A stretch of 64,000 nucleotides of DNA from Octopus vulgaris. Lineage: Eukaryota. The stretch covers positions 190,836,001 through 190,900,000 of the forward strand of contig OX597814.1 of assembly GCA_951406725.2 (NCBI GenBank). Direction: 5' to 3'. Position numbers and translations under genes: made by a program. Below the pieces are notes generated by a model. The model did no database searches. It was not told the origin of the DNA and saw nothing but the letters and a program-made list of their open reading frames with translations. This document shows, in pieces, positions 5,701 through 58,435 of the stretch (within the stretch, counting starts at the first letter, position 1; each line of letters begins with the position of its first letter).

Positions 5701-6120
5701 CGCATACCCTCCACCAGACACCTACCATATTCTGAGCGCCTTGTTTCCCTGGGCATGGATTCACTGAAGCTCCGGCGTTTGGCGACGGACTTGGTAAACA
5801 CCCACAAAGTTATCAACCACCTCACCAACAACAACACTGAACACCTTTTTGATCTCCATGTGTCTAACACACGTGGACATGCCTACAAAGTCAGAAAACA
5901 ATACAGCTCCCATGACTTTCGGAAACATTTTTTCACGCTCAGAGTTGCTGAAGCATGGAATAAACTGCCTGCGTCAGTTGTTGACTGCCATGACACTGCA
6001 TCTTTTAAGGCCCTCATGCTTTCCGAAATCTGCCGAAACTTCACCTGATTATATATACACTTTAGATGAGTTGTAGTGCACCTGAGCACTGTACACAATT
6101 ATTATTATTATTATTATTAT
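2785..6120 (+). mobile_element. CR1-clade LINE, 5'-truncated in ORF1; ORF2 (APE endonuclease + RT) broken by about two frameshifts; (ATT)n tail
   Basis: ORF1 remnant (IRLGRPGPKPRLIKLSF). APE motifs LNARSL, VTETW, RGGGV, VYRP, GDFN, LDL, SDH across ORFs 3285-3788 and 3674-4273. RT motifs NYRPVSLTS, YLDFAKAF, GVPQGSVLGP, YADD, RDLG in the 612-aa ORF 4210-6048. Tail attattatt 6098-6120. Confidence 0.95.
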
Positions 6121-6262: not shown

Positions 6263-7052
6263 ATCTTGGAAGCCCTGTAAAGGGTCATAGACATTGACTT
6301 CCTACCTTACTAAAAATGAAAAAAGAAAATTTTTTAAAAAATTAAAACCATGTTAGTGGAGTTTTTTTTTATTTTTTAAATTTACTTTTGAATAATTCCA
6401 TAAAATCCAATATGAAAATCTTAGAAGCCCTGTAAAGGGTCATAGACATTGACTTCCTACCTTACTAAAAATGAAAAAAGAAAATTTTTTAAAAAATTAA
6501 AACCATGTTAGTGGAGTTTTTTTTTATTTTTTAAATTTACTTTTGAATAATTCCATAAAATTCAATATGAAAATCTTAGAAGCCCTATAAAGGGTCGTAG
6601 ACATTAACTTCCTACCTTACTAAAAATAAAAAAATAAAATTTTTTTTTTAGATTAAAACCATGTTAATGGAGTTTTTTAAAAATTTTTTTATTTAATTTT
6701 GAATAATTCCAGTTAAAATCCAACATGAAGATCTTGGAAGCCCTATAAAGGGTCATAGACATCGACTTCCTACCTTACTAAAAATAAAAAAATAAAATAT
6801 TTAAAAAAAATTAAAACCATGTTAATGGAGGTTTTTTTTATTTTAAATTTTTTTATTTACTTTTGAATAATCCAGTTAAAATCCAACATAAAATTTTGGA
6901 AGCCCTGTATAGGATCATAGACATTGACTTCCTACCTTACTAAAAATAAAAAAAGAAAATTTTTTTTTTAGATTAAAACCATGAATTAATGGAGTTTTTA
7001 AAAAAAATTTTTTATTTAATTTTGAATAATTCCAGTTAAAATCCAACATGAA
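6263..7052 (+). repeat. Tandem repeat of five 155-162 bp units that includes the CEP95 last-exon acceptor
   Basis: Units start near 6263, 6418, 6573, 6731 and 6893 (atcttggaagccctgtaaagggtcatagacattgacttcctaccttactaaaa...aataattccagttaaaatccaacatga). Confidence 0.92.
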
Positions 7053-7221
7053 AAAAGAGTTACGTAGCAAGATGGAGAAAGACATCCACACCATCCAGAA
7101 GCAACTGTGTGATGACGATGACCACATTCACTTCCGTCAACTCGACACCGACAGGTTAAAACAAGAGTTACAAATGGCTAATTATATTTTTAAATCTCGA
7201 CCGTATCAGTACGTTGAATGA
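7036..7221 (+). CDS. CEP95: Terminal coding exon of a CEP95 (CCDC45)-like centrosomal coiled-coil protein; upstream exons lie left of the window
   Basis: AT/pyrimidine-rich acceptor ...aataattccAG|; phase-0 frame LKSNMKKELRSKMEKDIHTIQKQLCDDDDHIHFRQLDTDRLKQELQMANYIFKSRPYQYVE* (TGA 7219-7221). It resembles, from memory, the CEP95 C-terminus (KRELRSKMEKEIQ..Q......DDD..FR.LE..R....LQ.A). Unique non-repetitive sequence; possible ATTAAA polyA signal near 7417. Confidence 0.72.
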   Translation, partial: LKSNMKKELRSKMEKDIHTIQKQLCDDDDHIHFRQLDTDRLKQELQMANYIFKSRPYQYVE

Positions 7222-38215: not shown

Positions 38216-39601
38216 AATGTGAGATAATAGTTTCACTATGTATATATTATATAGATAGTGTAACTATTAAAAATGAAACTATATCTCACATTACAATAGA
38301 GATGTTATTGTTTCACTTTTGACACACAATTCTGAAACAGATTAAGAGATTACTCACGGCTTGCATTTAGCAAGAATTCGAAAATTTTGGCCCATGACAG
38401 TCCATGGACCCCAAGTAGTGCATGTGTAAAATTTGAATGAAATCAGTTGGGTAGTTCTCAAGTTTTAGTCATGCACACACACACACACACACACACATAC
38501 ATACAGACAGGCAGATACACATTCTCAGTTTTATATATATATATATATATATCACGTGATCATGTGACCGACCAGACCATCAGATGTTGTTACACATCGC
38601 TGGTCACAATGCGTTTTGCATTGTTTTAGCCTTCGAATGACGCCACCTCGCTGGCTAAGCGAGCAGGCCAATAGAAGAAAGAGTGGGAGAAAGAGTACAG
38701 CAGGGATCACCACCCCCTGCCGGAGCCTCGTGGAGCTTTTTAGGTGTTTTCGCTCAATAAACACAACGCCCAGTCTGGGAATCGAAACCGTGAGTCCGCT
38801 GCCCTAACCACTAGACCATTGCGCCTCCACATATATATATATATAGACAGATAATTGGCAGAGGTTACAGGGTCATTCAGGGGTCAAGAGCTATACACAT
38901 TGGCACTTATTGATAAGTGCTAAAGAATGAAATTCTTGACCTTTCAGTCACTCTGTAGCTTGAGTTTATATATATATGTATGTATGTATATATATATACG
39001 TATATCATATACACACACATCCATATATATACATAAATATACATATATATATAATTGAGACACAGTTGAATTAAGTGCTTAAGTTGAAGCATCAAGTCAG
39101 TCTGGTATTATCTGCACCAGCTCATAGTAAGGTGAATAAAATCTAAATAAGCAACAGGAGATCAAGTAGTAATGCAGTACAACCATTTCAAGCAGCTCCA
39201 TTTAATTGAACAATGCAATCATTACATCAAATTGAATACATTTTATTGCACCCGCAGTCTGATATACTTGTATGTACAGAATATAGTAAATTTTTCAATT
39301 ATAAAATTTATATAATATTCATACGCCTATTTGCAACATAGGTCGAGTTTCCACTACGACTTAAAACAATTAGACTTGGACAAAAAAATGCCCAGTAGTT
39401 GCCATTTGAATGGAAATTTTGTTTGCACTATAAAACACATATTGCTTGGTGTGTACCACCCCCTTGAGACCCAACTACACTCTAGGTGAAAAATGTAGAA
39501 TACCTCATAAGTATTTAAACATCCTAAATTCAGTGGCAGCGTTAATGAAGATGTTACATGTTAATATAGGGTGTTACACTTATCTTTATTAATGTTTATC
39601 A

Positions 39602-39648
<47 letters not shown>

Positions 39649-39797
39649 TGAGACACAGTTGAATTAAGTACTTAATTTGAAGCATCAAGTCAGTCTGGTA
39701 TTATCTGCAGAGCTCATATTAAGGTGAATAAAATCTAAATAAGCAACAGGAGATCAAGTAGTAATGCAGTACAACTGTTTCAGGCAGCTCCATTTAA

Positions 39798-40058
39798 TTG
39801 AGTTTTAGGCACTGGAACAAAAGAAAAGCAACAAAATTATCTGATCGTATTTGGTCTTTAAAAGATAAAGGTGTTGATTATAACATCCATTGGAAGATTT
39901 TGGCCAAATGTAAGCCCTACACCAACGGCAGCGGAAGGTGCGGTCTATGCGACATGGAGAGATGGCTTATCTGGAAAAGCAGCTTAGACCCTACTACATG
40001 TCTAAACTCAAGGACAGAACTTTTCGGATCATGCCCACATATGACTAAATTTTTGTGA
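39798..40058 (+). mobile_element. Penelope-like element, C-terminal GIY-YIG/zinc-binding fragment
   Basis: SFRH....ATKLSDRIWSLKD...YNIHWKILAKCKPY.NGSGRCGLC..E..LI......CLNSRTELFGSCPH..KFL. Confidence 0.75.
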
Positions 40059-41177
40059 CGTTTTTGGTCCCCTAAAGAAAACAGATAGAACTTGCTTTCT
40101 ATATTATGTCCCAAAAAGTTGTTTATCTCATTATACCTTTTATTATTTCATATATATTTTTATATTTTCACACATTAATTTTTTCTGTACTTTTCTATCC
40201 TGCATTTTTTCCTGTGCCTATATAGATGTGTATATAGATTCATTTGTACATTTGTGTGAATATGTATGAGTGGGCAGTTTTAGATGTGTGCGTGTGTGCG
40301 GGCATAAGAATGCACATATATATATATATAGACGTTTTTACTTAGTATTTTTCCATTTTTTTGGGGGGGGGAGACATATGTATATTCATTTTTTGTACAT
40401 GCGTGTGTATGTATGCGTATATAAATATGTGCGGGTATGTACATATATGGGCATGTGTGTGTATGAGTGCATAGGGGCTTGTCCGTATATGAACGTGGTT
40501 TTTATGCTTTGTTACCTTTAACCATGGTTTTTCTTGTGCTTGTGCGTATATAGACATATGTATGAACTTTTACGGTAGGCATGTGTGTGTGTATGAGTTT
40601 GTATATATATGCGTCGTCCGCCAGCCTCGTCTGGCACCTGTGTCGGTGACACATAAGAAAACACCATCCGAGCGTGGCCGTCTGCCAGCCTCGTCTGGCA
40701 CCTGTGTCGGTGGCACATAAAAAACACCATCCGAGCGTGGCCGTCTGCCAGCCTCGTCTGGCACCTGTGTCGGTGGCACATAAAATCACCCACTACACTC
40801 TCGGAGTGGTTGGCGTTAGGAAGGGCATCCAGCTGTAGAAACACTGCCACATCTGACTGGCCTGGTGCAGCCTTCGGGCTTCCCAGACCCCAGTTGAACC
40901 GTCCAACCCATGCTAGCATGGAAAGCGGACGTTAAACGATGATGATGATGATTAGGCGAAAAATGTGAGTGAAGATGTGTACGTTTTCATAGTGACGTAT
41001 AAGTACGCACGTGGGTCCGCGAGCAGAATTATAACACAGTAATTTCCCTTTATATAACGGTATTTTTTCATAGCGTTTTTCAGATGGCCAGATAAGCGAA
41101 GAGATGGTGTTGTGGATTTCCACTTCGGCATCTGAAACTCAGAGTTTTATCTTGACTATTGAGTAAATGTAACATAT

Positions 41178-41208
<31 letters not shown>

Positions 41209-41291
41209 CACAAGATTTACACAAATATAGAGTTAGAACTTGTGATCCACCAGCGAACCTTTATCTTTGGAAATTTTTGCTGGCTATACTA

Positions 41292-41856
41292 TTGGGTTGT
41301 GCGGAAAGTGTGTGCCAATTTTTAAAGGAAAGAAAAGGGTCAATAACTACTTGCCATAACATTTTTAATCAACAAATTTGAACCAGTATGTTGTACAATG
41401 CGTCATCATCTTTCCATTAACTTGAAAATACCCTCTTCCCAGAATTGAGGTGGTTTCATGGCAAAGAATTCATCAGGGTATCTTTTTACATCATCCAAGG
41501 AATTGAAATTTTTACCTTTAAGACTATTCTGCAGAGACCTGAATTAGTGGAAATCCAAAGGAGCAATATCTGGTGAATAAGGAGGGTGGGGTAACACATC
41601 CCAGCCGAGCTGCAACAATTTTTGTGTGGTTCCCAAAGCATCAAATTCCGAAAATGAACTTCCTTCTCTTCCATTTTAAAGGGTTACAAAATTAACACAG
41701 GTTACAGGAACATAAACCTTCTTCCATGAAAAGATAGCTTAAACTGTGCTTTAAATGGAGGTGTAGTCAAATCCTATTTTATGGGCTCAACCATATTCTA
41801 AAATAAGTCGAAAGGTAAGCTACTATAAATCGGCACAAACTTTCCGGACGACCCAA
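41292..41856 (-). mobile_element. Internally deleted mariner element with both TIRs
   Basis: TA-TTGGGTTGTGCGGAAAGT ... ACTTTCCGGACGACCCAA-TA; remnant VLPHPPYSPDIAPLDFH*FRSLQNSL. Confidence 0.88.
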
Positions 41857-42255
41857 TAAAAAGTTTCCCCACCTCTTGTTTAAAGGAGTGTCATATAGGT
41901 ATGGCTGTGTGGTAACAAGCTTGCTTCCTAATTCCATGCTTCCACATTCAGTTCCACTGTGTGACACCTTGGGCAATTGTCTTCTACTGTATCCTCAGGC
42001 TGACCAAAGCTTTGTGAATGGATTTGGTCAATGGAAACTGAAAGAAGCCCATTAACCCCAGAATTTATTTTTTGTAGGCTTTGTACTTATTCTATCATTC
42101 TCTTTTGCTGAATCGCTAAGTTATGGGAATGCAAACACACCAACATCGATTGTCAAACGATGATGGGGAGACAAACACAGACACAAAAACACACATGCCT
42201 TTGGATTTAATTATCTCTTAGAGGTTTTAAACTCCACTAACTGATACCTACACAA

Positions 42256-42286
<31 letters not shown>

Positions 42287-43899
42287 ATATCATCATCATC
42301 ATCAGTTAGCGTCTGCTTTCCATGTTAGCATGGGTTGGACGGTTCAACTGGGGTCTGGGAAGCCAGAAGGCTGCACCAGGCCCAGTTTGATCTGGCAATG
42401 TTTCTACGGCTGGATGCCCTTCCTAACGCCAACCACTCCGTGAGTGTAGTGGGTGCTTTTTACGTGCCAGACGGTGCTGACAAACGGCCACGGTCAGATG
42501 GTGCTTTTTACGTGCCACCGGCACGTAGGCCAGTCGGGGCGGCGCTGGCAACAGCCATGATCGGATGGTTCGCTTACGTGCCACCGGCACTGGTATCACA
42601 GCTGCAATTTCCATTGATGTTGATCGACTTCGATTTTGGTTCTGCTTTCTCCAACAAATTCCAGATAAATCACCAACATCTGGATGTATCTTTGTGAACA
42701 ATAACTCTGTACTTGAATGGACTATGGTACCCAAACAATGACTATAAGATGGCTTTTGCAGGTGGCATTATCAAGTTAGTCATGGCTTGGGCCAATTCTG
42801 GTCAAAACTTAAGTAATACATGTATCTAAGTATACAAGCGCACACATATGGAAGCAGGCATACATACTTACATACATACATATATATATATATATATACA
42901 CAGATAAATAAACAAATGGAAGTAAATAACTATACACATTTTTTTAATTATTATTACTATTATTATTATCATTATTATTATACATACATAATAATAATGA
43001 TGATAATAATAATAACAATAACAATAATGATAATATATATACACAATGGGCTTCTTTCATTTTCTGTCTACCAAATCCACTCACAAGGCTTTGGTCGACC
43101 CGAGGTTATAGTAGAAGACACTTGCCCAAGGTGCCACGCGGTGGGACTGAACCCAGAACCATGTGGTTGGGAAGCAAGCTTCTTACCACACTGCCACTCC
43201 TGTACCTATGTAAAATATTTCAAATTTTTGCCCATCTTTTGCCTCTTGTCTGCAAGCATAAAGTTACCCCTTAGGGTTCTTTGCCTTGCAAACTGCATGA
43301 GGGCCTCACTAATACTGGTGGCTTGAAGAAACAGTCAGTGGTAAAGCATTAGGAAGAACCTTAGGCTGTGGAAACCAGACCAAATCAGTCACTGGAACAT
43401 GTTGCAATCCTTGGGCCCATTGTATATTACTCTTTTACTCATTTCAGTCATTTGACTTTGGCCATGCTGGAGTACCGCCTTTAGTCAAGCACATCAACCC
43501 CGGGACTTATTCTTTGTAAGCCTAGTACTTATTCTATCGGGCTCTTTTGCCGAACTGCTAAGTTACGGGTACATAAACACATCAGCATTGGTTGTCAAGC
43601 AATGTTAGGGGGACAAACAGACACACACATACATACGTATATTTTTAATTTATTTAATTTAATTTAATTTAATTTTTTGGCTCAAAAAGCAAAAGCAAGG
43701 CCATGTAGGGGGACATGGAGTTATGTACAGGGAGGGTGTTCATACAAAGAGTTCAGGCCATATATATATATATACGACGGGCTTCTTTCAGTTTCCGTCT
43801 ACTAAATCCACTCACAAGGCTTTGGTCGGCCCGAGGCTATAGTAAAAGACACTTGCCCAAGGTGCAAGCTACTTACCACACAGCCACTCCTTATATAAG

Positions 43900-44890
43900 A
43901 TTTGGTAAAGAAGCAAGTCAATCCTAAAACAAAGGATTGACCTGGGTGCAGAAGTGATACCATGTTGCTTTTGGCGATAATCTCACAAGTCAGGAGAGAT
44001 CAGTGATAGAGTGCATTCTTGTCAAGAAGAATCTAATTCGTTGTGCTCCACAGATCTGGTTGCTTTTGCCAAAATGTCCTCCATCGAATGCTTCAAAACA
44101 TCACAGTAGGGCTCTAGATTGACGGTCTGGTCCTGGGAAATGAATTCTTGATGCACAATACCACATTTCTGGGGCTGATGCTTGTGACAGGTCTTCCAGA
44201 TTGCTCATCATCTTTCAAGAATATTCTTCCACTTCTAAAGTGCCTGTGCCACTTGAAACATTGATGCATTTGACTCATTGCCTTGTCACTATGACCCTGT
44301 CATCTGGTCATCGAATCTAAATAGAGACTTCAAACTTGAAATCTTCAAAGCCACAGTCGAACCAATTCTACTATATGGCTCAGAAACCTGGACATTATCA
44401 AAGAAGCTTGAGAGGCGGTTGGATGGAACCCACACTCTCCTCCTTATGAGAGCTCAAAATCTCTCGTGGAAGCGTCATCCAACCAAAATGCAAATATATG
44501 AGAAACTACCACCTGTGTCATCTCTTGTGAAAGGTAGGAGAGTCCAGTTTGCTGGACATTGTTGTAGAGCTGAAAACGAGGGAAGCCATCTGCTCATGAT
44601 ACCAGAGGGTGCACACTCTCCTACCCTGATGTAATCTCCAGGGATACAGGTATCCAGCAACAGGTCCTCCGTAATGCTATGATGGACCGTGAAGTCTGGC
44701 GTAGCATGGTAAATTCCATTGTCTCGACCACGGTTGAACAATGATGATGATGATGATGATGACCCTGTCAAAGCATGCTCAACGTCCCAAGTTTAATGCA
44801 AAATTTCACGTTGGCTCTTTGTTCTTGTCAAGGACAAAATCACAGACTACAGCATCCATGTGATCACAAAAACATAATTTTCACAAGATT
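43900..44890 (-). mobile_element. Degenerate mariner fragment interrupted by an RTE insertion
   Basis: Minus-strand GIVHQEF..QDQTVN...YCDVL motif at about 44090-44165; sequence resumes after the RTE TSD. Confidence 0.6.
44303..44760 (+). mobile_element. 5'-truncated RTE-clade LINE with (GAT)n tail and 12-bp TSD
   Basis: FKATVEPILLYGSETWTL...RR.QFAGHC; TSD ATGACCCTGTCA at 44291-44302 and 44759-44770. Confidence 0.88.
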
Positions 44891-45094
44891 AGGAACGCTT
44901 AGCTGGAGAGAGACGCAGGGGACAAGCCTGTATGCAAGAACAACCGCTCTTTTACTTAGCTCCGGCGTACATATGTACGTAAATGAGTGTGACTTCGTCA
45001 TCATAGGGCGAGCATGAGTTATGACACATAGATACATGTGTGCGTACATACATAGATGACCAGCAAAAAATATTTCAACTACATCAATATATGT

Positions 45095-45310
45095 CAACTG
45101 AGAGGAAGTATAACAAACACAAAATTGTTGTTGAGATGTTACTTCCTGTGAAGTAAGACGTCCAGATATCTGTGAAGCACTTAGTATAGTGTGATACATA
45201 CGAAGAATAAAACAGGAAATTGATGTACAGTAATAATAGTGTGAAGTGTGTACACACCTATTAATATAAACAATACTTGTCGATAGATGAGAAATATTCT
45301 GTCAGTAAAT
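45095..45310 (+). promoter_or_regulatory. Candidate core/proximal promoter with three ETS-type sites
   Basis: GAGGAAGT 45102-45109, ACTTCCTG 45141-45148, ACAGGAAAT 45212-45220, TATAAA 45265-45270, TCAGT 45302-45306, directly upstream of a consensus splice donor. Confidence 0.35.
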
Positions 45311-45401
45311 GTTAAGATATAGTGTGACTAGTCTTCTTTAAGACAAAGGCAAAACAAGACCACAAAAAGATAGCCATCCCTCAAAGAATGAATTAATTAC
45401 G
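45300..45401 (+). other. Probable 5' (non-coding) exon of the transmembrane-adaptor-like gene; left boundary uncertain (TSS near 45304 or acceptor AG at 45341-45342)
   Basis: Consensus donor ACG|GTAAGT at 45401/45402 in unique sequence; upstream TATAAA (45265-45270) and TCAGT initiator-like motif (45302-45306). Confidence 0.45.
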
Positions 45402-45708
45402 GTAAGTGTATAAGGATTATCTCTAATTAATTTTGTTTTTCTTTCTTGTTTATATAAACGTTTTATACATACACACACACATATATGTATGTATGTGTGT
45501 ATGTATACATATATATGTATATATATGTGTGTGTGTATGTATGCATGTATCTATCTATCTATCTATATATATATAAACTGGCAAAATGACCATTCCGAAA
45601 TATAACAATATATATTAGAAGTATTAGAAGAAATGAGGTACTCAGAAATTTGGATGGTTTTATATTTACAGATATTTATTTATATATTACATGTTTTTAT
45701 ACATCATA

Positions 45709-46100
45709 TTAGCAGTACCGCCCATCGTTGCTCGGGTTTGTTTCGACCCTTTAGAATTGGAATTTTTGAAAAGTAAAAATTTTGCATTATGTAGCTTGTT
45801 TATTCTCTTTAAGTGAACATTTTTCTGGTTGAAATACACCAAAAAATGGTGACACAGCAGTCAAAAAATTGTAAAAAATAGGGATTTTTTAAGAAAAAAA
45901 AGCACCTTTTTGATGTAAATAATTTTTGGTGTTAACATGGTCTGATTTGAATTTTATCTTCTATGGAATGAAGAGCAAGCCTTCTTCTATCATACTCTGA
46001 ATTTTGGTCAACTTATGCCGCAGGGTCTCAGAGAAGATAGTGTTAGTTGAAGGCTACCAAACCTGCTACACACAAACTTCAGCTTTATATATATATATAT
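45709..46100 (-). mobile_element. Non-autonomous Helitron-like element
   Basis: Reverse complement of the cccgagcaacg..gggc.gtactgcta 3' hairpin/terminus seen at 12604-12632. Confidence 0.6.
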
Positions 46101-46933
46101 AGATATATATAATAGGGGAGTTTAGTTCACTGGTGATTTAAACAAATAGGTACACTGGGTAAGTGCTGTAATGGATTATCAGGGTTCTGGATATTTATGC
46201 TGTGAAAATACTTTGCTGTAATACATACAGACTAACATCTATACCCTCTGAAAAATGAACTGTGAACTATATTTCTTTACTCTCTACTCTTTCATTTCAT
46301 TGCTTATTATCTGCAAATTTTCCATGTTTAGATCTTTCATATGTTCTCTATTTGTCTCTGATGATGGAATGCCCCATATTCAGGCATACTTATTTCTTTA
46401 CTGCTCACAAGGGGCTACACACAGAGGGGACAGACAAGGACAGACCTCAGTGCGTAACTGGTACTTATTTAATTGACCCCGAAAGGATGAAAGGCAAAGT
46501 CGACCTTGGCGAAATTTGAACTCAGAACGTAGTGGCAAATGAAATACTGCTAAGCATTCGCCCGGTGTGCTAACATTTCTGCCAGCTCACTGCCTATCAC
46601 TTGGGATATCCCAGTAACAGCTGTAAGACCTCAGCTAATTTAAGAATAATAATGTATATGACTTGAGATGTTTGTTATGCCTTGGCGTTTGTTGTCCTCT
46701 TTCACACACACACATATATATATATATATGTATGTATGTATATGTATGTATATATATATCGGAGTAAGCACATAAATGTGAAACAAGGTGGAAAAAAGAG
46801 TACTCAAATACCAGAGGTAGAGTAATATGCTTTATTTAAAAGCAGCAGAAATGTAACGAAAGCCATTACTCAGAGTTTCATGTGAAATTCTGAGTAACGG
46901 CTTTTGTTACATTTCTGCTGCTTTTAAATAAAG

Positions 46934-47021
<88 letters not shown>

Positions 47022-47272
47022 AATGTAGGATAAAATTCTTTTGAAAAAAAATTTTATCAATGGCCTTCATATCAAAATATACCTTTAAAGGTTAAATTTA
47101 TAAATAACATATAAAATAAGGGCAAAAGAAAAATTCTAATGCCAAATATGCCAAAAAAGACAAAATTGTCTATAGCCATTATAATTTATGCGTTTCGGCT
47201 GCATAAATTATAATGGTTATTGACAATTTTGTCTTTTCGGCATATTTGGCATTAGAATTTTTCTTTTGCCCT

Positions 47273-47338
<66 letters not shown>

Positions 47339-48042
47339 TCATCATATATATTAATCCAAACAAGTGGAGGAATAGAAGAAATGAAGTTGCAAAACCAGAG
47401 AGAATAAATCAGAATTATTTCAAAATTCATTATATCTCAAAATATAGGAATGCACTTGGCTGGTTCCACACGAGATTTTTCGAAAGTGTATAGTGTATGG
47501 ACTTGTGTTGTAAATTATTTCTATTCTGATCATTATTATAAAAATAGTTTGTTTTTAAAATAGGAATCCAGCGATATATATAAACAGCCTCTAAATGTAT
47601 ACATACCATTAAAAGGCATGATGTTATGGAATTGTCTGAGATAAAATCTCTTTATTGACCTGTGTTAAAAACACAATGTATATCAGAGCAAGATAAATGT
47701 TGCTGCAGTGACTCGTGAGAATGACTTTCTTTTGCCTTTCTTGAGACTCATCAATGGCAAGCATTTGTCGCCTGCTTGAACAAAAATTTGTACCTTGATA
47801 TATAGGAAACAGTGAATAAAACATTTACTAGCACTGCTGATGTTTGCCACACTGTGGAAAAATTTGGTAAACACAATGGAAACAGCATTAAATTAAAATA
47901 GTCATCTGTGTATCATACTAAATGTATATGTACTCTTAGAAAGCATAATACTGTGTCTGTTTCATATATTTAGCTTTCTCACAAGCCACTACAGGGTTGT
48001 TATTTCATCTCCCTCTGATATCTATCTATCTCTATCTCTCTA

Positions 48043-48085
<43 letters not shown>

Positions 48086-48092
<7 letters not shown>

Positions 48093-48347
48093 GAAATGAG
48101 GTACTCAGAAATCTGGATGGTTTTATATTTACAGATATTTATTAGTATGTTACATGTTTTTATAAATCATATTTCATATATCATATATAAGTGCTTTCGT
48201 CCATTCTAGTGGAGTCTTCAAATTTGAAGACTCCACTAGAATGGACGAAAGCACTATATATATGATTTATAAAAACATGTAACATACTAATAAATATCTG
48301 TAAATATAAAACCATCCAAATTTCTGAGTACCTCATTTCTTCTAATA
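48086..48347. repeat. Fold-back palindrome (arms about 130 bp, no spacer) embedded in (TA)n
   Basis: ...gctttcgtccattctagtggagtcttcaaa|tttgaagactccactagaatggacgaaagc...; single arms of the family also at 951-1110 and 45624-45708. Confidence 0.9.
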
Positions 48348-48657
48348 TATAATACCTGTACATCATCTCAAAACCTTCTAATATATATATATAAGGTTCA
48401 AACGATGAATAGCTTCGCGTAAACCATAGGTTCGTTTTGTTCTCTTACTTTATTATCATCTTATAATCATCTCATAATAATTACTTTTATGACTTGTATT
48501 ACTACCTCAGTCAATCTAAATGTATATATTTGTCGTTACCTGTCATAAATAGCCTTTTTCTATTTGCAATATGCATTTTTGTTGATTTTTCATATTTTAC
48601 CCTTACATTTCCACGTGTATTTTATATTTTCTTTTCGTAACATATTTCTACTATATA

Positions 48658-48696
<39 letters not shown>

Positions 48697-49765
48697 GTTT
48701 TCAAATGCAGTACATCCATAAATGATGTTGTCTTGGATGAATATTCTTCCTAGTTTCTTCAAATGATTAATTAATGATCGTAATGCTAACATTAACTTCA
48801 GTGGAAAGCTCTCTCACTGTTACAGCTGGATTCCTCGTTATCTTGTCTCCAGTATTTCATTATTGAATTCCAGTTCATCAGGCTAACTGAAATTGCCAAG
48901 TTTGAATTTTTCAAACCTTTTTTTGTTATGTTGTGTCTGGGGAAGAGTCATTTTCTTATTGTGCCTTATAATTTAACACACTCACCGGTAAAATTTCCAC
49001 TTATTTCTTATTTTTATTTTCCTAAAATTTTCATTGTGTCTAGCTTGAAAGTCATAAACACGCCGACGGGAAGTAACATCATTAGGTGAGACAAGCTGAC
49101 TTACAGGTGACGGTCGTTTAGAAAAAGAGCGGGTTAAAACTACGCGCCTTCACTAGTCAGTTAAGGTGAGACAGTGTCATGTGACAACTTGCTGATGCAG
49201 CAGGTATTTAAAGGGAAAAATTTGACAAGACAGTCAGTCACCGGCTGACACTCACTGACGATACATCGAAGAGGCCAGGGAACAGAAGAAAGAAGACATG
49301 CACCCAACACCAGAGCTGAAGACACCTCCGAAAGTAAGGGCCCCACCACGTCAAAATGGTAGAGGAGTAGGGGCCGAAACCGGACGTGGTTCCTCCTGAT
49401 GATGTCTTGAGCTAACTGGATCCTATAAAGGAGCTGTTGTGGTAGCAGACCACGAAACACGGTTGTAATTCCTCCTTCAATAGTCCTGACTCTGTCCGTT
49501 ATTTACACTTTTTTTGTTATTTCTTACATATATACATACATGCATTGCCATCTTTGTTTAATGCCCATGTTTTATGCTGGCATGGGTTGGAAGGTTTGAC
49601 AGGATCTGATGGGATCAAAGACTGCATCACACATCAGTGTCTACTTGGGGGCATGAGGATAGCCTCTTAAGTCATATTTATTGTAATTATTCATTAATGC
49701 TTTGTCTGTTAATTTGCAGAGATTACAAACCATCAATAAAAAAGAAAGAAAACTTGTATTAAATA

Positions 49766-49850
49766 ATGAAGAACTTCCAAACAACACCAATTCTTGAAAG
49801 GAATAATTCAACAGATTCAGACCAATCACATATACTACATTTCCATGCAA
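49766..49850 (+). CDS. Coding exon 1 of a 161-aa single-pass membrane protein (exon spans 49720-49850): MKNFQTTPILERNNSTDSDQSHILHFHA
   Basis: Acceptor tttgtctgttaatttgcAG| (49718-49719); ATG 49766 with in-frame TAA at 49760-49762 upstream; donor CAA|GTAAGT at 49851; phase 1 fits the next exon. Confidence 0.6.
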
Positions 49851-51095
49851 GTAAGTTCTTAATTATTTTAATACATTTCATATATTAGTGTATGTCATCT
49901 GGGAGTGTTACCATACTTGCCACGCTTGGCATAGTGGGTTTGTAAGCCCCTTTAGAGAGCTTTTACCTCATTGCAGGAATATGTTAGGGCTTGTTCTTTA
50001 CTGTTGAAACTCACATGACACATGGACACACACACACACACACGACACATGGACACACACACACACACACACATGAAAATCATCATCATCATCATTATCA
50101 TCATCGTTTAACGTCCGTTTTCCATGCTAGCATGGGTTGGACGGTTCAACTGGGGTCTGGGAAGCTAGAAGGCTGCGCCAGGCCCAGTCTGATTTGGCAG
50201 TGTTTCTACAGCTGGATGCCCTTCCTAACATGAAAATAAATAAGTAAAAAAAAGTTGAAAGGTTAAAAATTATATACATACATGCTCACAGTCCCTCCAC
50301 CACCACCACTGGATGGCCACTGACTTTCCTGAATTCCTCTGCTCTTTTGGATGGGTTTTGTTTTCTGTCCTGCAGGGTGTCTAATAACCACCCTCCTCAC
50401 CCAGCTCATTTGGTGGGGTCACCAGTTTAGTTACCAATGACCCAACCAAGACAAAATACAATATGACAAGATGATCTCAGCTGCTATCTGGGCCTGCATG
50501 ATTGTGACTGATCAGAAATAGGCAGTAGTGGAAGGAATCCAGAAAGGGATCCCGCTTTTAGGAGCAACAAAGCCCAGGTTGAGGTTTAATGCAATGGTTG
50601 GAAATTTCTATAGAAAAACAACTAGTAGGGACCTACGAATCTTCTGGTGTGTTTACGTCCCTGTAACTTAGTAGTTCGGCAAAACAGCCCAGTCGAATAA
50701 GTACTAGGCTTACAAAGAATTAGTCCTGGGGTCCATTTCATAGACTAAAACTCTTTAACTGAAACAAGTAGAATGATATATTTGTGTAGCCAACTTTCCT
50801 TTTGTCAATGTTAAGTTTAAGTAAAGGGAGATAACTCCTTCTGAACCTGAATTATTTCCCTCTTCTCATCTATCGTGTGCTCTTTCGCTTTATAGTCATA
50901 ATTTCCACCTTCTTATGCACATATATATATGATAGATCGTTAGCCACTACACACATTTTTTTTTATCTCCCCATTTCTGTAGAAGAGCGTAGGCTCGAAA
51001 CGTAAAAGACTTTTTCTATTCCTGAGCATTATACTAATACATCTGTTTGTTTTGTACACCACCTGTCTTCGTCTTTTGTTTTTTTCGTGAACTCT

Positions 51096-51131
<36 letters not shown>

Positions 51132-52439
51132 CAATAATAAAATAATTATAATAATAAGGATTATTTATTTATTTTTTTGCCAAATAAATTATTACTGTGC
51201 TCTTATTCTAACTGAGGCCTGGCCAACTCGAATTACATTGTGGGTCACTTTAATCACAGAAAGTTTTTTGAGGGCTGCTTGTATATTGACAGAATTGAAA
51301 GCATTTTGCTTTCTCATGCTATTATTACAATAATGAATGAATGATCATTGATTCAACATGAAATATTATCGTTGCAAAAACAGTAGTATCTTTCTTTTTA
51401 GCTTTCTGTTACAATCTTTAATTTTTGATAAAAATTTTTAAAATGTTTGTTTAAAGAAACCCATTTCAAGAAAGTATGAAGCAGCCCGCAAGATAAAAGT
51501 CTGCGGGTCACATGCAGCCAATGGGTTTTAGGTTGGCCAGCCCTGTTCTAACACATGTCCATTGTCTGTAAATCTTTCATCACACATCTGTGACCTCTTC
51601 AGTGGCACTTTTCGTCTGCGTGTGCTCTTACTGCACTTATTTTATTCTGCCCTTCTATGATGCGTATCCTTATGTGCACGTGCATTTGCATCCGCGTTTA
51701 TGTATGTTTGCATGTATGTGTGTGTCATTGAGCTGGTAGAAACGTTAGTACGCCAGGCGAAATTCTTAGCGGTATTTTGTCTGCCGCCATGTTCTGAGTT
51801 CAAATTCCGTCGAGGTCGACCTTGCTTTTCATCCTTCCGGTGTCGATTAAATAAGTACCAGTTACGCATTGGGGTTGATATAATCGACTTAATCAGTTTG
51901 ACTGTCCTTGTTTGCACCCTCTGTGTGTAGCCCCTTGTAGGCACTAAAGAAATAAGAGTATAAATTTTCCCTCAGCCCCATCCTCTTCCCCTGTTGTTGC
52001 TGCTGATCTCCTAGGACCCCAAAATTTGGTATAGTTTCTGTATCCCTCTGTGTTTGTGTGTTCGCCTATGATGCTGCCATCGTGGTAGTTGTTGTTGTTA
52101 TTATTGCCATCGTTGTCACCACCGCTACTGCTGTCATTGTTAGTACTGTTGCAGCTGTCTGTGAAGTTATTGTGTGTGTTTGTGTGTATATATGGGTTCG
52201 CTTATTATGTTGTTTGTATCCATGCCCTTTATTTTCATCTACTTCTATTTCTTATATTTATCACTGGTATGTGACAAATATATTAATTTATTTATCTATA
52301 TTTCTTATATGTATCACAGGTATGTGCATATATGTCTACTGTGTGTGTATTACCCGTTTGTGTGTGTTTTATTTATATTATTATTTTTTCCTTCTCTCTT
52401 CTCCTCTCATCTGTCTTTAGTCATGTGGTGTGGTGGTGG

Positions 52440-52880
52440 GTGTTACTGTTCCATTTGTGTTTTCTATTGAGGCTCAGCTTGTCTACTGTTATGTGTGTAG
52501 CCTCTGTGATCTGTCTAAGTGTTATATCAGTTCTATATGTCGATAATACTTTAACCTCTATGTTGTTAATCAAGCCTCCAAGTTCTGCTTGAGTATGTTA
52601 GCAGAGCACTAATGAGCCTTTCTCTTCTTTGAGCTCTTGCCAGTGTTCATCTATGCGTTCCCCTATGCTGCATGCAGTCTCTCCAATGTAAGTAGTTGTC
52701 AGGTTTCCACACTGTTCCTCAGTACATCATCAGCTATACACTATATTCCTAATCTTACAGTTAATCCAAAGGTTCATCCTACATAAGACACAATTGTTCC
52801 CCGTAGATGGGAACTTATCAAAGGGATAGGTTCTACAGATCAAGGATTATATAGGGGCATCAGGCCTTTCTTCTACCTTA
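52440..52880 (-). mobile_element. Penelope-like (Neptune-type) GIY-YIG endonuclease remnant
   Basis: NCKIRNIVYS**CTEEQC...TYIGETACSIGERIDEH...LRQITEATHI......LNRKHKWN. Confidence 0.78.
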
Positions 52881-54612
52881 ATCTGTAGAGTAAACTTACT
52901 GGCACTTGTGCTGGTAGCACATAAAAAAACATTCATGCGAGGTTGTTGCCAGTGCTGCTGGACTGGCTCCTGTGCAGGTGGCACGTAAAAAACACTATCT
53001 GAGCATGACCGTTGCCAGTGCCTCTGTCTGGCCCCTCATGCCAGTGGCACGTAAAAGCACCCACTACACTCTGAGTGGTTGGCGTTAGGAAGGGCATCCA
53101 GCTGTAGAAACTCTGCCAGATCAGATTGGAACCTGGTGCAGCCATCTAGTTTGCCAGACCTCAGTCAAATCGTCCAACCCATGCTAGCATGGAAAGCGGA
53201 TGTTAAACGATGATGATGATGACAGCCTACATATATACATATATATAGAACAAAATACTTTGTCCCCTCTCTCTCTATATATATATATATCACAAGATTT
53301 GGGCTCAGAATGCAAAGAACTGAGACAGATCCCATCTGACACTCCAGTTATTTTGCTAGTACCCCGCCCTAGATTGCTACTTCATTCTATTGACCCCAAA
53401 CAGGTTGAAATGGAAAGGTGACCTCAGCATACACAGGTTTTAGTTGGTTATTTTGAATATCTAATATTTACTGTGAAATATCTAATCCAGCCATAAATTA
53501 TTTCCTAATGAACGTGGGAATTATTTATCCATACACGAGATGATTAACCTCTATCTGCCAATGAATTATCTACTAAATACTTATCCACTAACGATATAAA
53601 TTATTCATGAGATATCAGCTATAAAATATTTTAATATTCATCCAACCATGAAATAATTGACATTTATTCAGCTATGAAATATCTAACACATATTTATCTC
53701 CATTCAGAGCTCATTGCTCATCATCCTCATGGGTCGGGCATAATTTGCTGAGGCAGAGTTTCTTATGGCTGGACGCCCTTCCTGTCACCAAACCTCACCT
53801 GTTTCCAAGAAACATAATATATCTAGGAAGAACAGAAACAAGGGACACCACTTGTATGATGGTGACACTTATTTACACCTACTGCATGATATCAAGGCAA
53901 GGGGACAGTAACACACACACACAACAGGCTTCCACACAAGTTTCCATCTACCAGATTCATTCACAAGGCTTTGGTCGGCCAGAAGCTGTAGCAGAAGAGA
54001 CTTGCCCAAGGTACAATGCAGTAGTACTGAATCTAAAACCATCTGGTTAGGAGGTAAACTTCTTATTTCTTTATTTCCCACAAGAGGCTAAACACAGAGG
54101 GAACAAACAAGGTCAGATAACAGGATTAAGTTGATTACATCGACTCCAGTGCATAACTGGTACTTAATTTATCGACCCCGAAAGGATGAAAGGCAAAGTC
54201 GACCTCAGCGGAATTTGAACTCAGAACGTAATGGCAGACGAAATACCGCTAAGCATTTCACCCAGATTGCTAACTCTTCTGCTAGCTAGCCGCCTTACTT
54301 CTTATTTCTTTATTGCCCACAAGGGACTAAACATCGAGGGGACAAACAAGGACAGACAAAGTGATTAAGTCAATGATATCGACCCCAGTGCATAACTAGT
54401 AAAATTCATCGACCCTGAAAGGATGAAAGGCAAAGCCAACCTCAGCAGAATTTGAACTCGGAACGTAGTGGCAGACGAAATACCGCTAAGCATTTTGCCT
54501 TACTTCTTAACTTCTTAACCACACAGCCATGCCTGCCCCTATCTGACACAAAAATCTCATGCTTATGTCTTTTCATGTTTATATTTTTATCCTTTTCCTA
54601 ATTTTCTTTTAG

Positions 54613-54697
54613 GATTAATTACTTATATTGGCGCTACCATATCTATTGGATTATGCATCATCACTCTTTGTGTCTTGATTTGGTACATCAGGAAACA
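54613..54697 (+). CDS. Coding exon 2, transmembrane helix: (R)LITYIGATISIGLCIITLCVLIWYIRK(Q)
   Basis: Long polypyrimidine tract ...attttcttttAG|, donor ACA|GTGAGT, 85 nt, phase 1 in and phase 2 out; about 24 hydrophobic residues followed by basic RKQK. Confidence 0.85.
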
Positions 54698-54841
54698 GTG
54701 AGTATCCATTTTTCATTCTTTATTAGGAAGTTATTCCTCAGAGAATAAAGAACTTGATAAACCTAGCATTCCAATCAGACCAAATTCCCAGATAAATTCT
54801 ACAGAATATGTTTGCATTGTTTTCATCATCATCATTATTAT

Positions 54842-55468
54842 CAGCATGTAAAAAGCACCATCCAAACGTGATAGATGCCAGTGTTCCCCCACTGGCTCCC
54901 GTGCTGGTGGCATCATCCAAATATGGTCGCTGCCGGTGGCACGTAAAAAGCACCATCCAAACATGGTCGATGCCAGTGCCCCCTGACTGGTTCCTGTGCT
55001 GGTAGCACGTGAAAAGCACCATCCGAACATAGTTGATGCCATGCCCCCTGACTGGTTCCTGTGCTGGTAGCACGTGAAAAGCACCATCCGCACATAGTCG
55101 ATGCCAGTGCCCCCTGACTGGTTCCTGTGCTGGTAGCACGTGAAAAGCACCATCCAAACATGGTCGATGCCAGTGCCCCCTGACTGGTTCCTGTGCTGGT
55201 AGCACGTGAAAAGCACCATCCGAACATGGTCGATGCCAGTGCACCCTGACTGATTCCTGTGCTGGTAGCACGTGAAAAGCACCATCCGAACATGGTCGAT
55301 GCCAGTGCCATGTAAAATGCACCCACTACATCTCGGAGTGGTTGGCATTAGGAAGGGCATCCGTGCCAGGTCAGATTGGAGCTTGGTGCAGCCTGCTGGC
55401 TTGCCAGTCCTCAGTCAAACCATCCAACCTTTACCAGCATGGAAAACGGACGTTGAAATAATGATGAA
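54842..55468 (+). mobile_element. SINE family C: (GAT)n-tailed, RTE-like, with an internal 66-bp VNTR of about 6 units. Other copies at 9282-9590(-), 23000-23435(-), 31385-31890, 37935-38180, 40615-40952, 42292-42610(-), 52897-53222
   Basis: Shared ggttggcgttaggaagggcatccagctgtagaaac...acccatgctagcatggaaa..gacgttaaacgatgatg; repeat anchors at 54951, 55017, 55082, 55148, 55214, 55280. Confidence 0.85.
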
Positions 55469-56307
55469 TAAGTGAGAGACATAGCAATTATTAACTGAAC
55501 ACAGCTAACACAAACACTTTCTCCTCATTACAAAAATTTTTTTTTTCGCCCTTTTCAAACTCATGGGCCCAGTTTCTTGGTTTCTGTGTCGTATGTGTTC
55601 CCCCCAGCTGGACGGGACACCAGTCCATCGCAGCATTACTCAAGAAACAGGAAGAGAGAATGAGAGCAAGTTGTGGCAAAAGAGTACAACAGGGATCACC
55701 ACCCCCTGCCGGAGCCTCGTGGAGCTTTTAGGTGTTTTCGCTCAATAAACACACACAACGCCTGGTCTGGGAATCGAAACCGCAAGTCCGCTGCCCTAAC
55801 CACTGGGCCATTGCACCTCCACTAAGAAAAATATGCTCGCATACATAAGCTGAGAGAAAGAGACAGATGGAAAGTGAAGGAACTCACTGCATTGCACAGA
55901 CCACAGCTTGCTCATCTCTAAAGGTCCAAGCAATCCTTTTGCTTTCTTGATAAAAGGACTGCTATCAAGGTGGCAAGTTGGCAGAAACGTCAGCATGCCA
56001 GGCGAAATGCTTAGCAGTATTTCATGTCTTTATGTTCTGAGTTCAAATTCCGCCGAGGTCAACTTTGCCTTTCATCCTTTTGGGGTGGATAAATTAAGTA
56101 CTAGTTGCGTACTGGGATCAATCTAATTGACTGCCCCATCCCACCAAAATTTTAGGTCAACGGTTTATACTTTTAACTTGTATTTCAAGGTTAGCATTAG
56201 GAAGGGCATCCGTTCTTCAGAAAATCTTCTGAGAAATGGTCTTGTAAAAAAATACAAACCATCAATCTGTATTATTTCTAAACACACACATATATATATA
56301 CATACAT

Positions 56308-56340
<33 letters not shown>

Positions 56341-56853
56341 CACACACGTTATATTTGGTGTTAGGAAGGGCATCCAGCTGTAGAAACATTGCCAGATAAG
56401 ACTGGAGCCTGGTGCAGCCTTCTGGCTTCCCAGATCACCGGTCAAACCGTCCAACCCATGCTAGCATGGAGAACGGATGTTAAACGATGATGATGACACA
56501 CAAGGTTTAAAAAAAAGACCTGGCTGTGTGATAAGAAGATAACTTCCTAATCACATGGTTCTGGGTTCTGTCCCACTATGTTGCATCTTGGGCAATTGTC
56601 ATCTACAAAAATCCTCAGGTTCACCAAAACCTTGTGAATGGATTTGATAGATGGAAACTGAAAGAAGCCTATCATATATATGTGTGTGTGTGTCTGAGTT
56701 TGTCCCCCACCACCATTTCACAACTGGGCTTGGTGTTTACATGACCATAACTTAGCAGTTCAGTAGAAGGCAACAATAAAATAAGTACCAGGTTTTGTAC
56801 AAAAGATAAATACTGGGGTTGATTTGTTGGACTAGAAAAAATAAAAATTCAAA

Positions 56854-57233
56854 TAGGTGCAGGAGTGGCTGTGTGGTAAGTAGCTTGTTTACGAACCACA
56901 TGGTTCCGAGTTCAGTCCCACTGCGTGGCATCTTGGGCAAGTGTCTTCTGCTATAGCCCCGGGCCGACCAATGCCTTGTGAGTGGATTTGGTAGACGGAA
57001 ACTGAAAAAAGCCTGTCGTATATATGTGTGTTTGTGTGTCTGTGTTTGTCCCCCTAGCATGACTTGACAACCGATGCTGGTGTGTTTACGTCCCCGTCAC
57101 TTAGCGGTTCGGCAAAAGAGACCGATAGAATAAGTACTGGGCTTACAAAGAATAAGTCCCGGGGTCGATTTGCATGACTAAAAGCGGTGCTCCAGCATGG
57201 CCGCAGTCAAATGACTGAAACAAGTAATAGAGT
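56854..57233 (+). mobile_element. SINE family A: tRNA-derived head, CORE-like ccttgggcaagt, internal (TA)n/(TG)n, tail ...tgactgaaacaagtaaaa. Representative copy; others at e.g. 669-1492(-), 7480-7845, 17780-18220, 29062-29455, 35240-35631(-), 43430-43890(-), 57970-58360(-)
   Basis: A-box tggctgtgtggt and B-box-like gttcagtcc; many near-identical copies on both strands. Confidence 0.9.
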
Positions 57234-57359
57234 AGTGCCCTAATATGGCTACAGTTTAATGACTGAAGCAAGTAAAAGATAGATAACATGCATCTTCATT
57301 CATCATCTGTTCATCAAATTTCCTTAATTAAGAAATAATTATTTTATTTTCTCTCACAG

Positions 57360-57675
57360 AAAAACTTTAACTTTTGAGCAAGTTCCAGTAGAAGATGGCA
57401 ATACAAACGATGCTAAAAGTAACACGAAAAACGTATACGACGACTTCCAATATCTCCGATGTAAAATCACTGAGAACAACACGCAACAGAGTGACAACAG
57501 AATGCAACAGACCAGTGTTGTCTATGAAACACCGACAATACAAAGGGAACACGTGACACCAAGAGGAAACATTGCAGATGAAGATGCAAATATTTATGGC
57601 AATACTCTGCAACACCAGAGGCTTGAAAGGCAGCCCACGAATGAAATATATATGAACATGGATACCAATAGATAG
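57360..57675 (+). CDS. Terminal coding exon, cytoplasmic tail with tyrosine motifs: KTLTFEQVPVEDGNTNDAKSNTKNVYDDFQYLRCKITENNTQQSDNRMQQTSVVYETPTIQREHVTPRGNIADEDANIYGNTLQHQRLERQPTNEIYMNMDTNR*
   Basis: Acceptor attttattttctctcacAG| (57358-57359); phase 2 matches the TM exon; 104 open codons to TAG 57673-57675 in unique sequence; candidate AATAAA at 58445-58450. Confidence 0.85.
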
Positions 57676-57907
57676 AAGAGGTAGAGTAATTAGAAGAGGA
57701 CTTGTACATATCTTAATCAAAAATGTCTACTGAATTTTCCCCTTGTCTGTATTCCATTTGTTTTAGCTAATACAGCTAAGGCCCACCAGGACATGTCAGG
57801 TCAGAGCAGCAATGTTATATATATATATATACATATATATTTATTCAAACTGAGATTTTTAGCCTACATTTCAGTAATGGCCTAAAATATCAATTTTAAA
57901 ATATATG

Positions 57908-58161
57908 CAGGATGGGCCAAAAGTCACGCACCAAAACATTTGACATTTTATTTATAACATGTTGTTTTATGCTTTTATTTGTTTCAGTCATTTGACTGCG
58001 ACCATGCTGGAGCACTGCTTTTAGTCGAACAAATCGACCCCAGGACTTATTCTTTGTAAGCTTAGTACTTTTTCTATTGGTCACTTCTGCTGAACTGCTA
58101 AGTTACGGGGACGTAAACACATCAGCATCGGTTGTCAAGCGATGGTGGGAGACAAACATAT

Positions 58162-58196
<35 letters not shown>

Positions 58197-58435
58197 CATG
58201 GGCTTCTTTCAGTTTCCATCTACCAAATCCACTCACAAGGCTTTGGTTGGCCCACGGCTATAGTAGAAGACACCTGCCCAAGGTACCACACAGTGGGACT
58301 GAACCTGGAACCATGTGGTTGGGAAGCAAACTACTTACCACACAGCCACTCCTGTGCCTACTAAAAATTGAAGCTACCCCTTAACAATTCCATAGCTAAG
58401 TTTTAATCTTGGTGCCTGAATTTTGGTCCACCCTG
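57908..58435. mobile_element. Tc1/mariner MITE with a nested SINE, in the presumptive 3' UTR
   Basis: CAGGATGGGCCAAAAGTCACGCACCA ... TGGTGCCTGAATTTTGGTCCACCCTG-TA; SINE at about 57970-58360. Confidence 0.6.

Follow-up and report, generated by a model that had tools for sequence, protein, structure and literature searches.

Gene structure and transcripts

The window analysed here is a 64,000-nucleotide (nt) stretch of the Octopus vulgaris genome (GCA_951406725.2, contig OX597814.1, positions 190,836,001 to 190,900,000 of the forward strand), and all positions below are counted from its first letter unless another contig is named. It carries a spliced gene that encodes a protein of 161 amino acids (aa) with a short N-terminus, one transmembrane helix, no detectable domain and a tail with conserved tyrosines, an arrangement which suggests a membrane-bound phosphotyrosine adaptor. 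Transcript evidence comes from contigs of four public runs (X4, X8, X9 and X13, from four studies) over the region 38501-58400; these runs are presumed to be RNA and have no tissue label, and their contigs indicate presence rather than level. The exons of the gene are as follows.

44817..45401 (+), exon 1, non-coding 5' untranslated region (UTR), seen in the X13 contig (44817-45400) and the X8 contig (45213-45400)
49720..49850 (+), exon 2, end of the 5' UTR, in-frame TAA at 49760-49762, ATG at 49766, residues 1-28
54613..54697 (+), exon 3, the single transmembrane helix (about residues 30-54, codons 54615-54689) with G35/S39/C43/T46, and basic RKQ
57360..58015 (+), exon 4, cytoplasmic tail residues 58-161, stop codon, 3' UTR to at least 58015

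Bounded by AG/GT, the coding exons 49720-49850, 54613-54697 and 57360-57675 are spliced in phases 1 and then 2 into the 161-aa open reading frame (ORF), running from the ATG at 49766 to the stop codon at 57673-57675; splice ends, phases and frame are all as the original prediction described them. The gene structure given there was incomplete, however, as it lacked the non-coding exon 1, which has a GTAAGT donor at 45402 and 14 upstream ATGs inside it and whose 5' boundary (44817) is the end of a contig and not a mapped start. The X13 contig (1440 nt) covers 44817-45400 and continues at 49720 with a single letter in between, and the X8 contig does likewise from 45213. The X13 contig has A as the last base of exon 1, where the genome has G. 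Exon 1 is present in two of the four runs (X8 and X13), and 32 and 24 nt ahead of exon 2 in X4 and X9 are unplaced among the matches listed. Contig depth is 219 in X13 and 6-10 in the remaining three runs, figures of no use as an expression level.

The first predicted junction (49850^54613, GT..AG) lies within a single contig in each of the four runs. The second (54697^57360) follows from contig coordinates in three of them (X4, X9 and X13), because exactly 85 nt, the length of exon 3, separate the exon-2 and exon-4 pieces; it is not among the 15 joints listed from a set that holds 533 more. Because the in-frame TAA at 49760-49762 stands six bases ahead of the ATG, exon 1 is non-coding for the 161-aa protein and an ectodomain is missing from the transcripts seen. 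The RefSeq accessions, three from O. sinensis and two from O. bimaculoides, each encode a short protein as well, and the short outer part that had been predicted is thus borne out in the transcripts seen. A rare long isoform with an ectodomain may still exist beside the short form.

Orthologues and copy number

The protein is identical, letter for letter, to CAI9716530.1 (O. vulgaris, hypothetical) and to XP_029639267.1, XP_029639276.1 and XP_036363768.1 (O. sinensis LOC115214262). The gene had been presented as missed by the ORF track, but it is not new to annotation; NCBI has it already, without a name or function ('uncharacterized'). In word-index searches the only relative near the query length is the O. 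bimaculoides orthologue LOC106873026 (159 aa, 86% identity), and no longer relative was found among 29 candidates of 183-2000 aa, a search which the tool itself marks as weak. Scanning 1.84 billion representatives in full with HMMER yielded two hits and so added Argonauta hians GAB1597841.1 (175 aa, 42%), and a profile built from the three sequences recovered the same three proteins out of 1564 candidates. No relative was found among squid, cuttlefish or other mollusc proteins in these database searches, a negative that rapid divergence or gaps in the databases may explain. The gene therefore appears to be octopod-restricted, with orthologues found only in O. bimaculoides and Argonauta hians. 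The Argonauta-Octopus split is calibrated at at least about 29 million years in excerpts of PMC12682272.

No second copy of the gene was found in its own genome. Thirteen non-self genome matches (E 0.003-7) were considered as paralogues or retrocopies, and none was accepted. When 16 weak candidate loci (12 of those 13, with three and one from other searches) were aligned as DNA, 15 stayed inside the score range given by 30 shuffles, and L019 alone came out just over it (41 vs 39) and was not accepted as a paralogue. Another rejected candidate, L005/L043 (G000:C17:56.02 Mb), is a weak match spanning the exon junctions of the transmembrane region (E 0.003) that has the look of an old retrocopy, and its DNA score falls within the shuffle range. 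No similar sequence occurs at E<0.8 in 200 kb of flanks (100 kb per side).

Membrane helix, N-terminus and fold

The helix is preceded by 27-29 residues in all three species, the N-terminus of Argonauta being equally short. A single hydropathy peak (2.39) lies at residue 34, and a structure model built on the alignment of three sequences has one helix at residues 17-58 and coil elsewhere, with the predicted local distance difference test score of the tail mostly <50 and a predicted template-modelling score of 0.22. Both agree with the proposed anatomy of one transmembrane helix and an unstructured tail. The helix residues G35, S39, C43 and T46 are shared by the three proteins and would sit together on a single face. 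Of the two transmembrane cysteines noted in the original prediction, Cys43 is kept in Argonauta but C48 is replaced there by Ala; C43 lies mid-helix, and the protein contains no juxtamembrane CxxC. The N-terminus contains no Cys in any of the three proteins. The NNS/NST glycosylation sequons do not hold as a conserved feature, being absent in O. bimaculoides, and Argonauta has three elsewhere; sequons of some kind are found in two of the three N-termini. The charge just after the helix is +3 in all three proteins, and across the 15 residues before it -1, 0 and +3; a cytoplasmic tail (N-out, C-in) thus has partial support. A homodimer prediction for residues 20-66 scored 0.09, which we count neither for nor against any reading.

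The absence of a recognisable domain was confirmed, as there is no Pfam match under E 0.07, and there is no PDB match under E 0.4. Language-model searches gave opalin, SCIMP, GAPT, poxvirus A36R and LIME1 as neighbours, all <0.9 and hence leads only, which point to likeness of build and not homology. In a structure search with the Atlas model every template-modelling score was <0.5, and when the Argonauta protein was compared with unnamed Atlas clusters the best score was 0.87, again a lead only.

An origin of the helix from the first transmembrane segment (TM1) of adhesion G-protein-coupled receptors (GPCRs), considered because of an apparent likeness, was not supported, the resemblance being neither significant nor helix-specific. 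ADGRG1 matched the helix at E 4.3 and the best octopus TM1 at E 0.07 among 30 proteins; of 500 shuffles, 6, 4 and 114 reached the TM1 profile, and a different window of the helix performed equally well (4, 2, 30). No 7tm_2 (family-2 GPCR) hit was found. As a separate observation, the genome contains a tandem cluster of more than 20 family-2 GPCR genes at G000:C9:28.19-28.90 Mb (L045-L051, L053-L066, L068), with the whole seven-transmembrane region in one open frame of mostly 630-710 aa; the N-terminus of L045 is Cys-rich.

Tail tyrosines and their conservation

The four tail tyrosine codons reported earlier (57436, 57523, 57595 and 57649) stand at those positions, and a fifth, at 57451, was missing from that list. 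They fall into four motif regions.

57436..57456 (+), Y83-DDF-x-Y88-L, kept in all three proteins
57520..57534 (+), V-Y112-E-x-P, kept in all three proteins
57592..57603 (+), I-Y136-x-N (YxN), kept in all three proteins
57643..57660 (+), E-I-Y154-M-N-M (YxN + YxxM), with the Argonauta end EIYYNM, plus an extra EVYAN

All five tyrosines are conserved in the three proteins, and the motifs common to all are YDDF-x-YL, VYExPTI, IYxN and E(I/V)YxN. Of the three outcomes that the original prediction named as counting against it, namely unspliced junctions, tyrosine motifs lost in orthologues and a long in-frame ectodomain, none was encountered. In Argonauta 5/5 tail tyrosines are kept vs 39/99 other tail residues (p ~0.009), while identity to Argonauta by region is 13/24 in the helix and 8/13 in the stretch right behind it, with 4/23 in the N-terminus and 37/95 in the tail. 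The C-terminal EIYxNM reads YMNM in Octopus, the motif of CD28, and YYNM in Argonauta, and NEIYMNMD and NEIYYNMN are identical at 6/8 positions; the YxNM thus seems to be kept in Argonauta, which has one YxN extra. Motif windows are better conserved than spacers in the comparison with O. bimaculoides (29/29 vs 59/75, p=0.003), whereas with Argonauta the difference falls short of significance (16/29 vs 28/75, p=0.077). Shuffled tails seldom have I, V or L ahead of four of the five tyrosines (0.15% of shuffles, or 0.45% when the tail is that of Argonauta), and YxNM occurs in 1.8% and, for Argonauta, 3.7% of them.

A putative transmembrane adaptor and its alternatives

The reading we favour, and hold somewhat more probable than not on what the sequences suggest, is that of a convergent transmembrane adaptor which Src-type kinases would phosphorylate, with recruitment of Grb2 and PI3K. 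Beyond the anatomy we infer every mechanistic step. The protein would be inserted N-out/C-in without a signal peptide, and once some partner receptor is engaged, perhaps contacted via the conserved small face G35/S39/C43/T46, its tail would be phosphorylated by Src-, Abl- or Syk-type kinases. The phosphorylated tail would then bring SH2-domain proteins to the membrane: a Grb2-type SH2 would bind IYxN and EIYxNM, p85/PI3K would bind YxNM, and Nck/Crk-type domains would perhaps bind YDDF and VYExP. The kinase preferences and the Nck/Crk binding rules applied here to the tail motifs are general background. The specificities of YxN for Grb2 and of YxxM for p85 are described in excerpts of PMC3342071 and PMC5852076. 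Such a protein would have originated independently of the vertebrate adaptors. That octopods evolved a LAT/LAX-type scaffold of their own, through which some receptor of haemocytes or sensory cells is coupled to Grb2 and PI3K, is a tentative proposal that we would sooner doubt than assert. The haemocyte or white-body role raised in the original prediction is likewise conjectural.

Possible readers of such a tail exist in the genome, which contains 36 SH2 matches, exons for the p85 iSH2 region, a Csk-like SH2 and one SH2 exon that resembles Grb2 and SHP2 to about the same degree; these genes would only make the adaptor model possible. Two further observations concern the reader genes themselves. 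Three similar SH2 exons lie within 82 kb at G000:C3:157.80-157.89 Mb (L075-L077), of which L075 has Csk as best match, and they may represent a local Csk-like expansion. At G000:C23:13.986 Mb one p85 iSH2 segment (profile 44-85) is present in two copies, L105 and L106, about 0.9 kb apart, possibly as a duplicated or mutually exclusive exon.

Several points weigh against the adaptor reading. The charge bias is unclear in Argonauta, with +3 before the helix and +3 after it, and there is neither a CxxC nor an ectodomain Cys. The Argonauta motif windows are not significantly better kept, being equalled by 1616 of 20000 random window sets; their flanks without the tyrosines are not enriched (11/24, p=0.31), and aromatic residues tend to be kept anyway (Phe 2/2). 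Two YxN (11.5%), YxxM (13.6%) and YxxP (17.8%) are all common in shuffled tails, and the motif features were picked after the sequence was seen. Automatic alignments pair YMNM with the Argonauta EVYANT (3/8 identical), so that the YxNM match requires a manual shift, and the YMNM/YYNM pairing was likewise chosen after the data were seen. Finally, the motif conservation rests on three sequences, two of which are close.

A narrower form of the adaptor reading is a receptor-bound subunit of the DAP10 type, stably paired through its helix with one ligand-binding receptor to which it lends the YxNM tail. DAP10 pairs through an acidic residue, whereas the octopus helix contains no charged residue, and its five tyrosines instead of one also make this version improbable in our judgement. 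In its favour, the helix is better kept against Argonauta than either the N-terminus or the tail, the small face is conserved, and the terminal YxNM resembles the YINM of DAP10, which binds p85 and Grb2 (excerpts of PMC5852076). We also give a low probability to the idea that an ordinary type I receptor gave rise to the protein as a stub or a short isoform, the ectodomain having disappeared or sitting in an unseen isoform, which would leave a decoy or an ordinary receptor tail. The phase-1 intron directly ahead of the transmembrane exon fits this idea and is common in modular receptors, and there are two weak phase-1 AGs in exon 2 downstream of the stop. Snails, moreover, have fast-evolving single-pass immune genes with SIT-/TMEM154-like labels, 354-817 aa long (excerpts of PMC10875847). 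Against such an origin stand the lack of a longer relative in the weak search of 29 candidates and the yield of two hits among 1.84 billion representatives, as do the flanks, where nothing similar was detected at that threshold and the identified exons belong to DUF5745 and DUF2046 genes, and the database isoforms, which are all short.

The third alternative is a small trafficking or structural membrane protein, in which the tyrosines would be YxxPhi sorting signals (YDDF, YMNM/YYNM) or packing residues rather than SH2 docks. YxxPhi is a sorting motif, YDDF and YxNM both fit it and are conserved, and the top language-model neighbour is opalin and not an immune adaptor. Yet Y112 (YExP) and Y136 (YxN) are kept though they lie outside YxxPhi, and sorting requires neither the Asn at +2 nor the I/V at -1 that are conserved; we regard this explanation, too, as unlikely.

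Genomic neighbourhood

The upstream neighbour is marked by a DUF5745 exon at L035:8003-8293 (+), and the window ORF 7030-7218 (+) may be the last exon of the same gene (by eye; no Pfam hit), which we take to be CEP95-like. Downstream, DUF2046 exons (L025 and L029) lie on the opposite strand (-), about 35-80 kb from the gene, and provide a useful synteny marker; their gene is presumably CCDC6-like. The window also contains, at 2746-6048 (+), a retrotransposon of the long interspersed nuclear element type, in which the endonuclease lies in another frame than the reverse transcriptase, itself an open frame of 644 aa (RVT_1 E 1.5e-37).

Literature and significance

Six accessions and locus ids of the gene were not found in the literature searched, most subscription papers being outside its scope, and no description of an invertebrate transmembrane adaptor of this kind was found there under mollusc, lamprey/amphioxus, hemocyte/Grb2 and YMNM/YINM topics. 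Nor was the locus found in the readable supplements of PMC9712504, PMC13230822, PMC9699675, PMC12607849 and PMC11202624, the large PMC9712504 archive and one PMC9699675 file being outside the search. Excerpts of an amphioxus study on the SLP-76 complex report no LAT-like molecule and suggest that its part might be played by an unknown membrane protein (PMC5431462).

Domain-less, fast-evolving adaptors escape homology searches. If the adaptor reading is true, the octopod protein would show that this design can arise again, as a protostome case of a class whose known members come from vertebrate leukocytes and which was not detected even in amphioxus. This would also suggest screening invertebrate proteomes by architecture, and the protein itself would serve as bait with which to find the receptor and the kinase acting in a phosphotyrosine pathway of cephalopods. 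The gain is limited at present to one lineage-restricted, already annotated gene with a predicted function.

Comparison with known systems

Several known proteins resemble the octopus protein in part. DAP10 (YINM) shares with its tail a YxNM able to serve both Grb2 and p85 (excerpts of PMC5852076), a capacity predicted for the octopus protein. CD28 (YMNM) has such a dual motif too. The match to them is of four residues only: the octopus protein adds four further tyrosines and has no charged transmembrane residue, and CD28 has an Ig ectodomain where the octopus protein has none. Opalin, SCIMP and poxvirus A36R (feature scores 0.89, 0.88 and 0.85) are likewise small proteins that cross the membrane once and have unstructured tails; they share 131-141 of 256 features, and with all scores <0.9 they are leads only, not homologues. 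The Biomphalaria PTC/GRC immune genes are molluscan, fast-evolving and single-pass, some with SIT/TMEM154 labels (excerpts of PMC10875847), but those listed encode 354-817 aa and are clustered, whereas the octopus gene encodes 161 aa without an ectodomain, is single-copy and has no sequence match seen to them.

The transmembrane adaptor is defined by a short outer part, one helix and a non-enzymatic tail with tyrosine motifs (excerpts of PMC3342071). The vertebrate adaptors, described from leukocytes, are like the octopus protein in the short outer part, the one transmembrane helix and a non-enzymatic tail with several tyrosine motifs, YxN and YxxM among them; the octopus gene is found in octopods only. 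With 16 aa in the outer part of PAG (excerpts of PMC3342071), the 27-29 aa of the octopus protein lie at the long end. The palmitoylated adaptors (LAT, NTAL and PAG) have a juxtamembrane CxxC, which the octopus protein lacks, and it also lacks the outer Cys of the TRIM/SIT type, which serves a disulfide-linked dimer. SIT forms such a dimer. TRIM is a disulfide dimer as well (excerpts of PMC2212462).

None of the Pfam families of LAT, SIT, TRIM, SCIMP, GAPT and LIME matched at E up to 5, and profile searches gave octopod proteins only, with no vertebrate hit. The original description as LAT/SIT/TRIM-type holds for the anatomy of the class (short outer part, one helix, domain-free tail, conserved tyrosines); homology to LAT, SIT or TRIM was not found by Pfam or profile match. 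Among the adaptors the non-palmitoylated LAX (YxN + YxxM, no CxxC) is most like the octopus protein, and GAPT, also non-palmitoylated, is most like it in size. Judging by its sequence, the octopus protein likely works like a transmembrane adaptor without being a member of the LAT, SIT or TRIM families.

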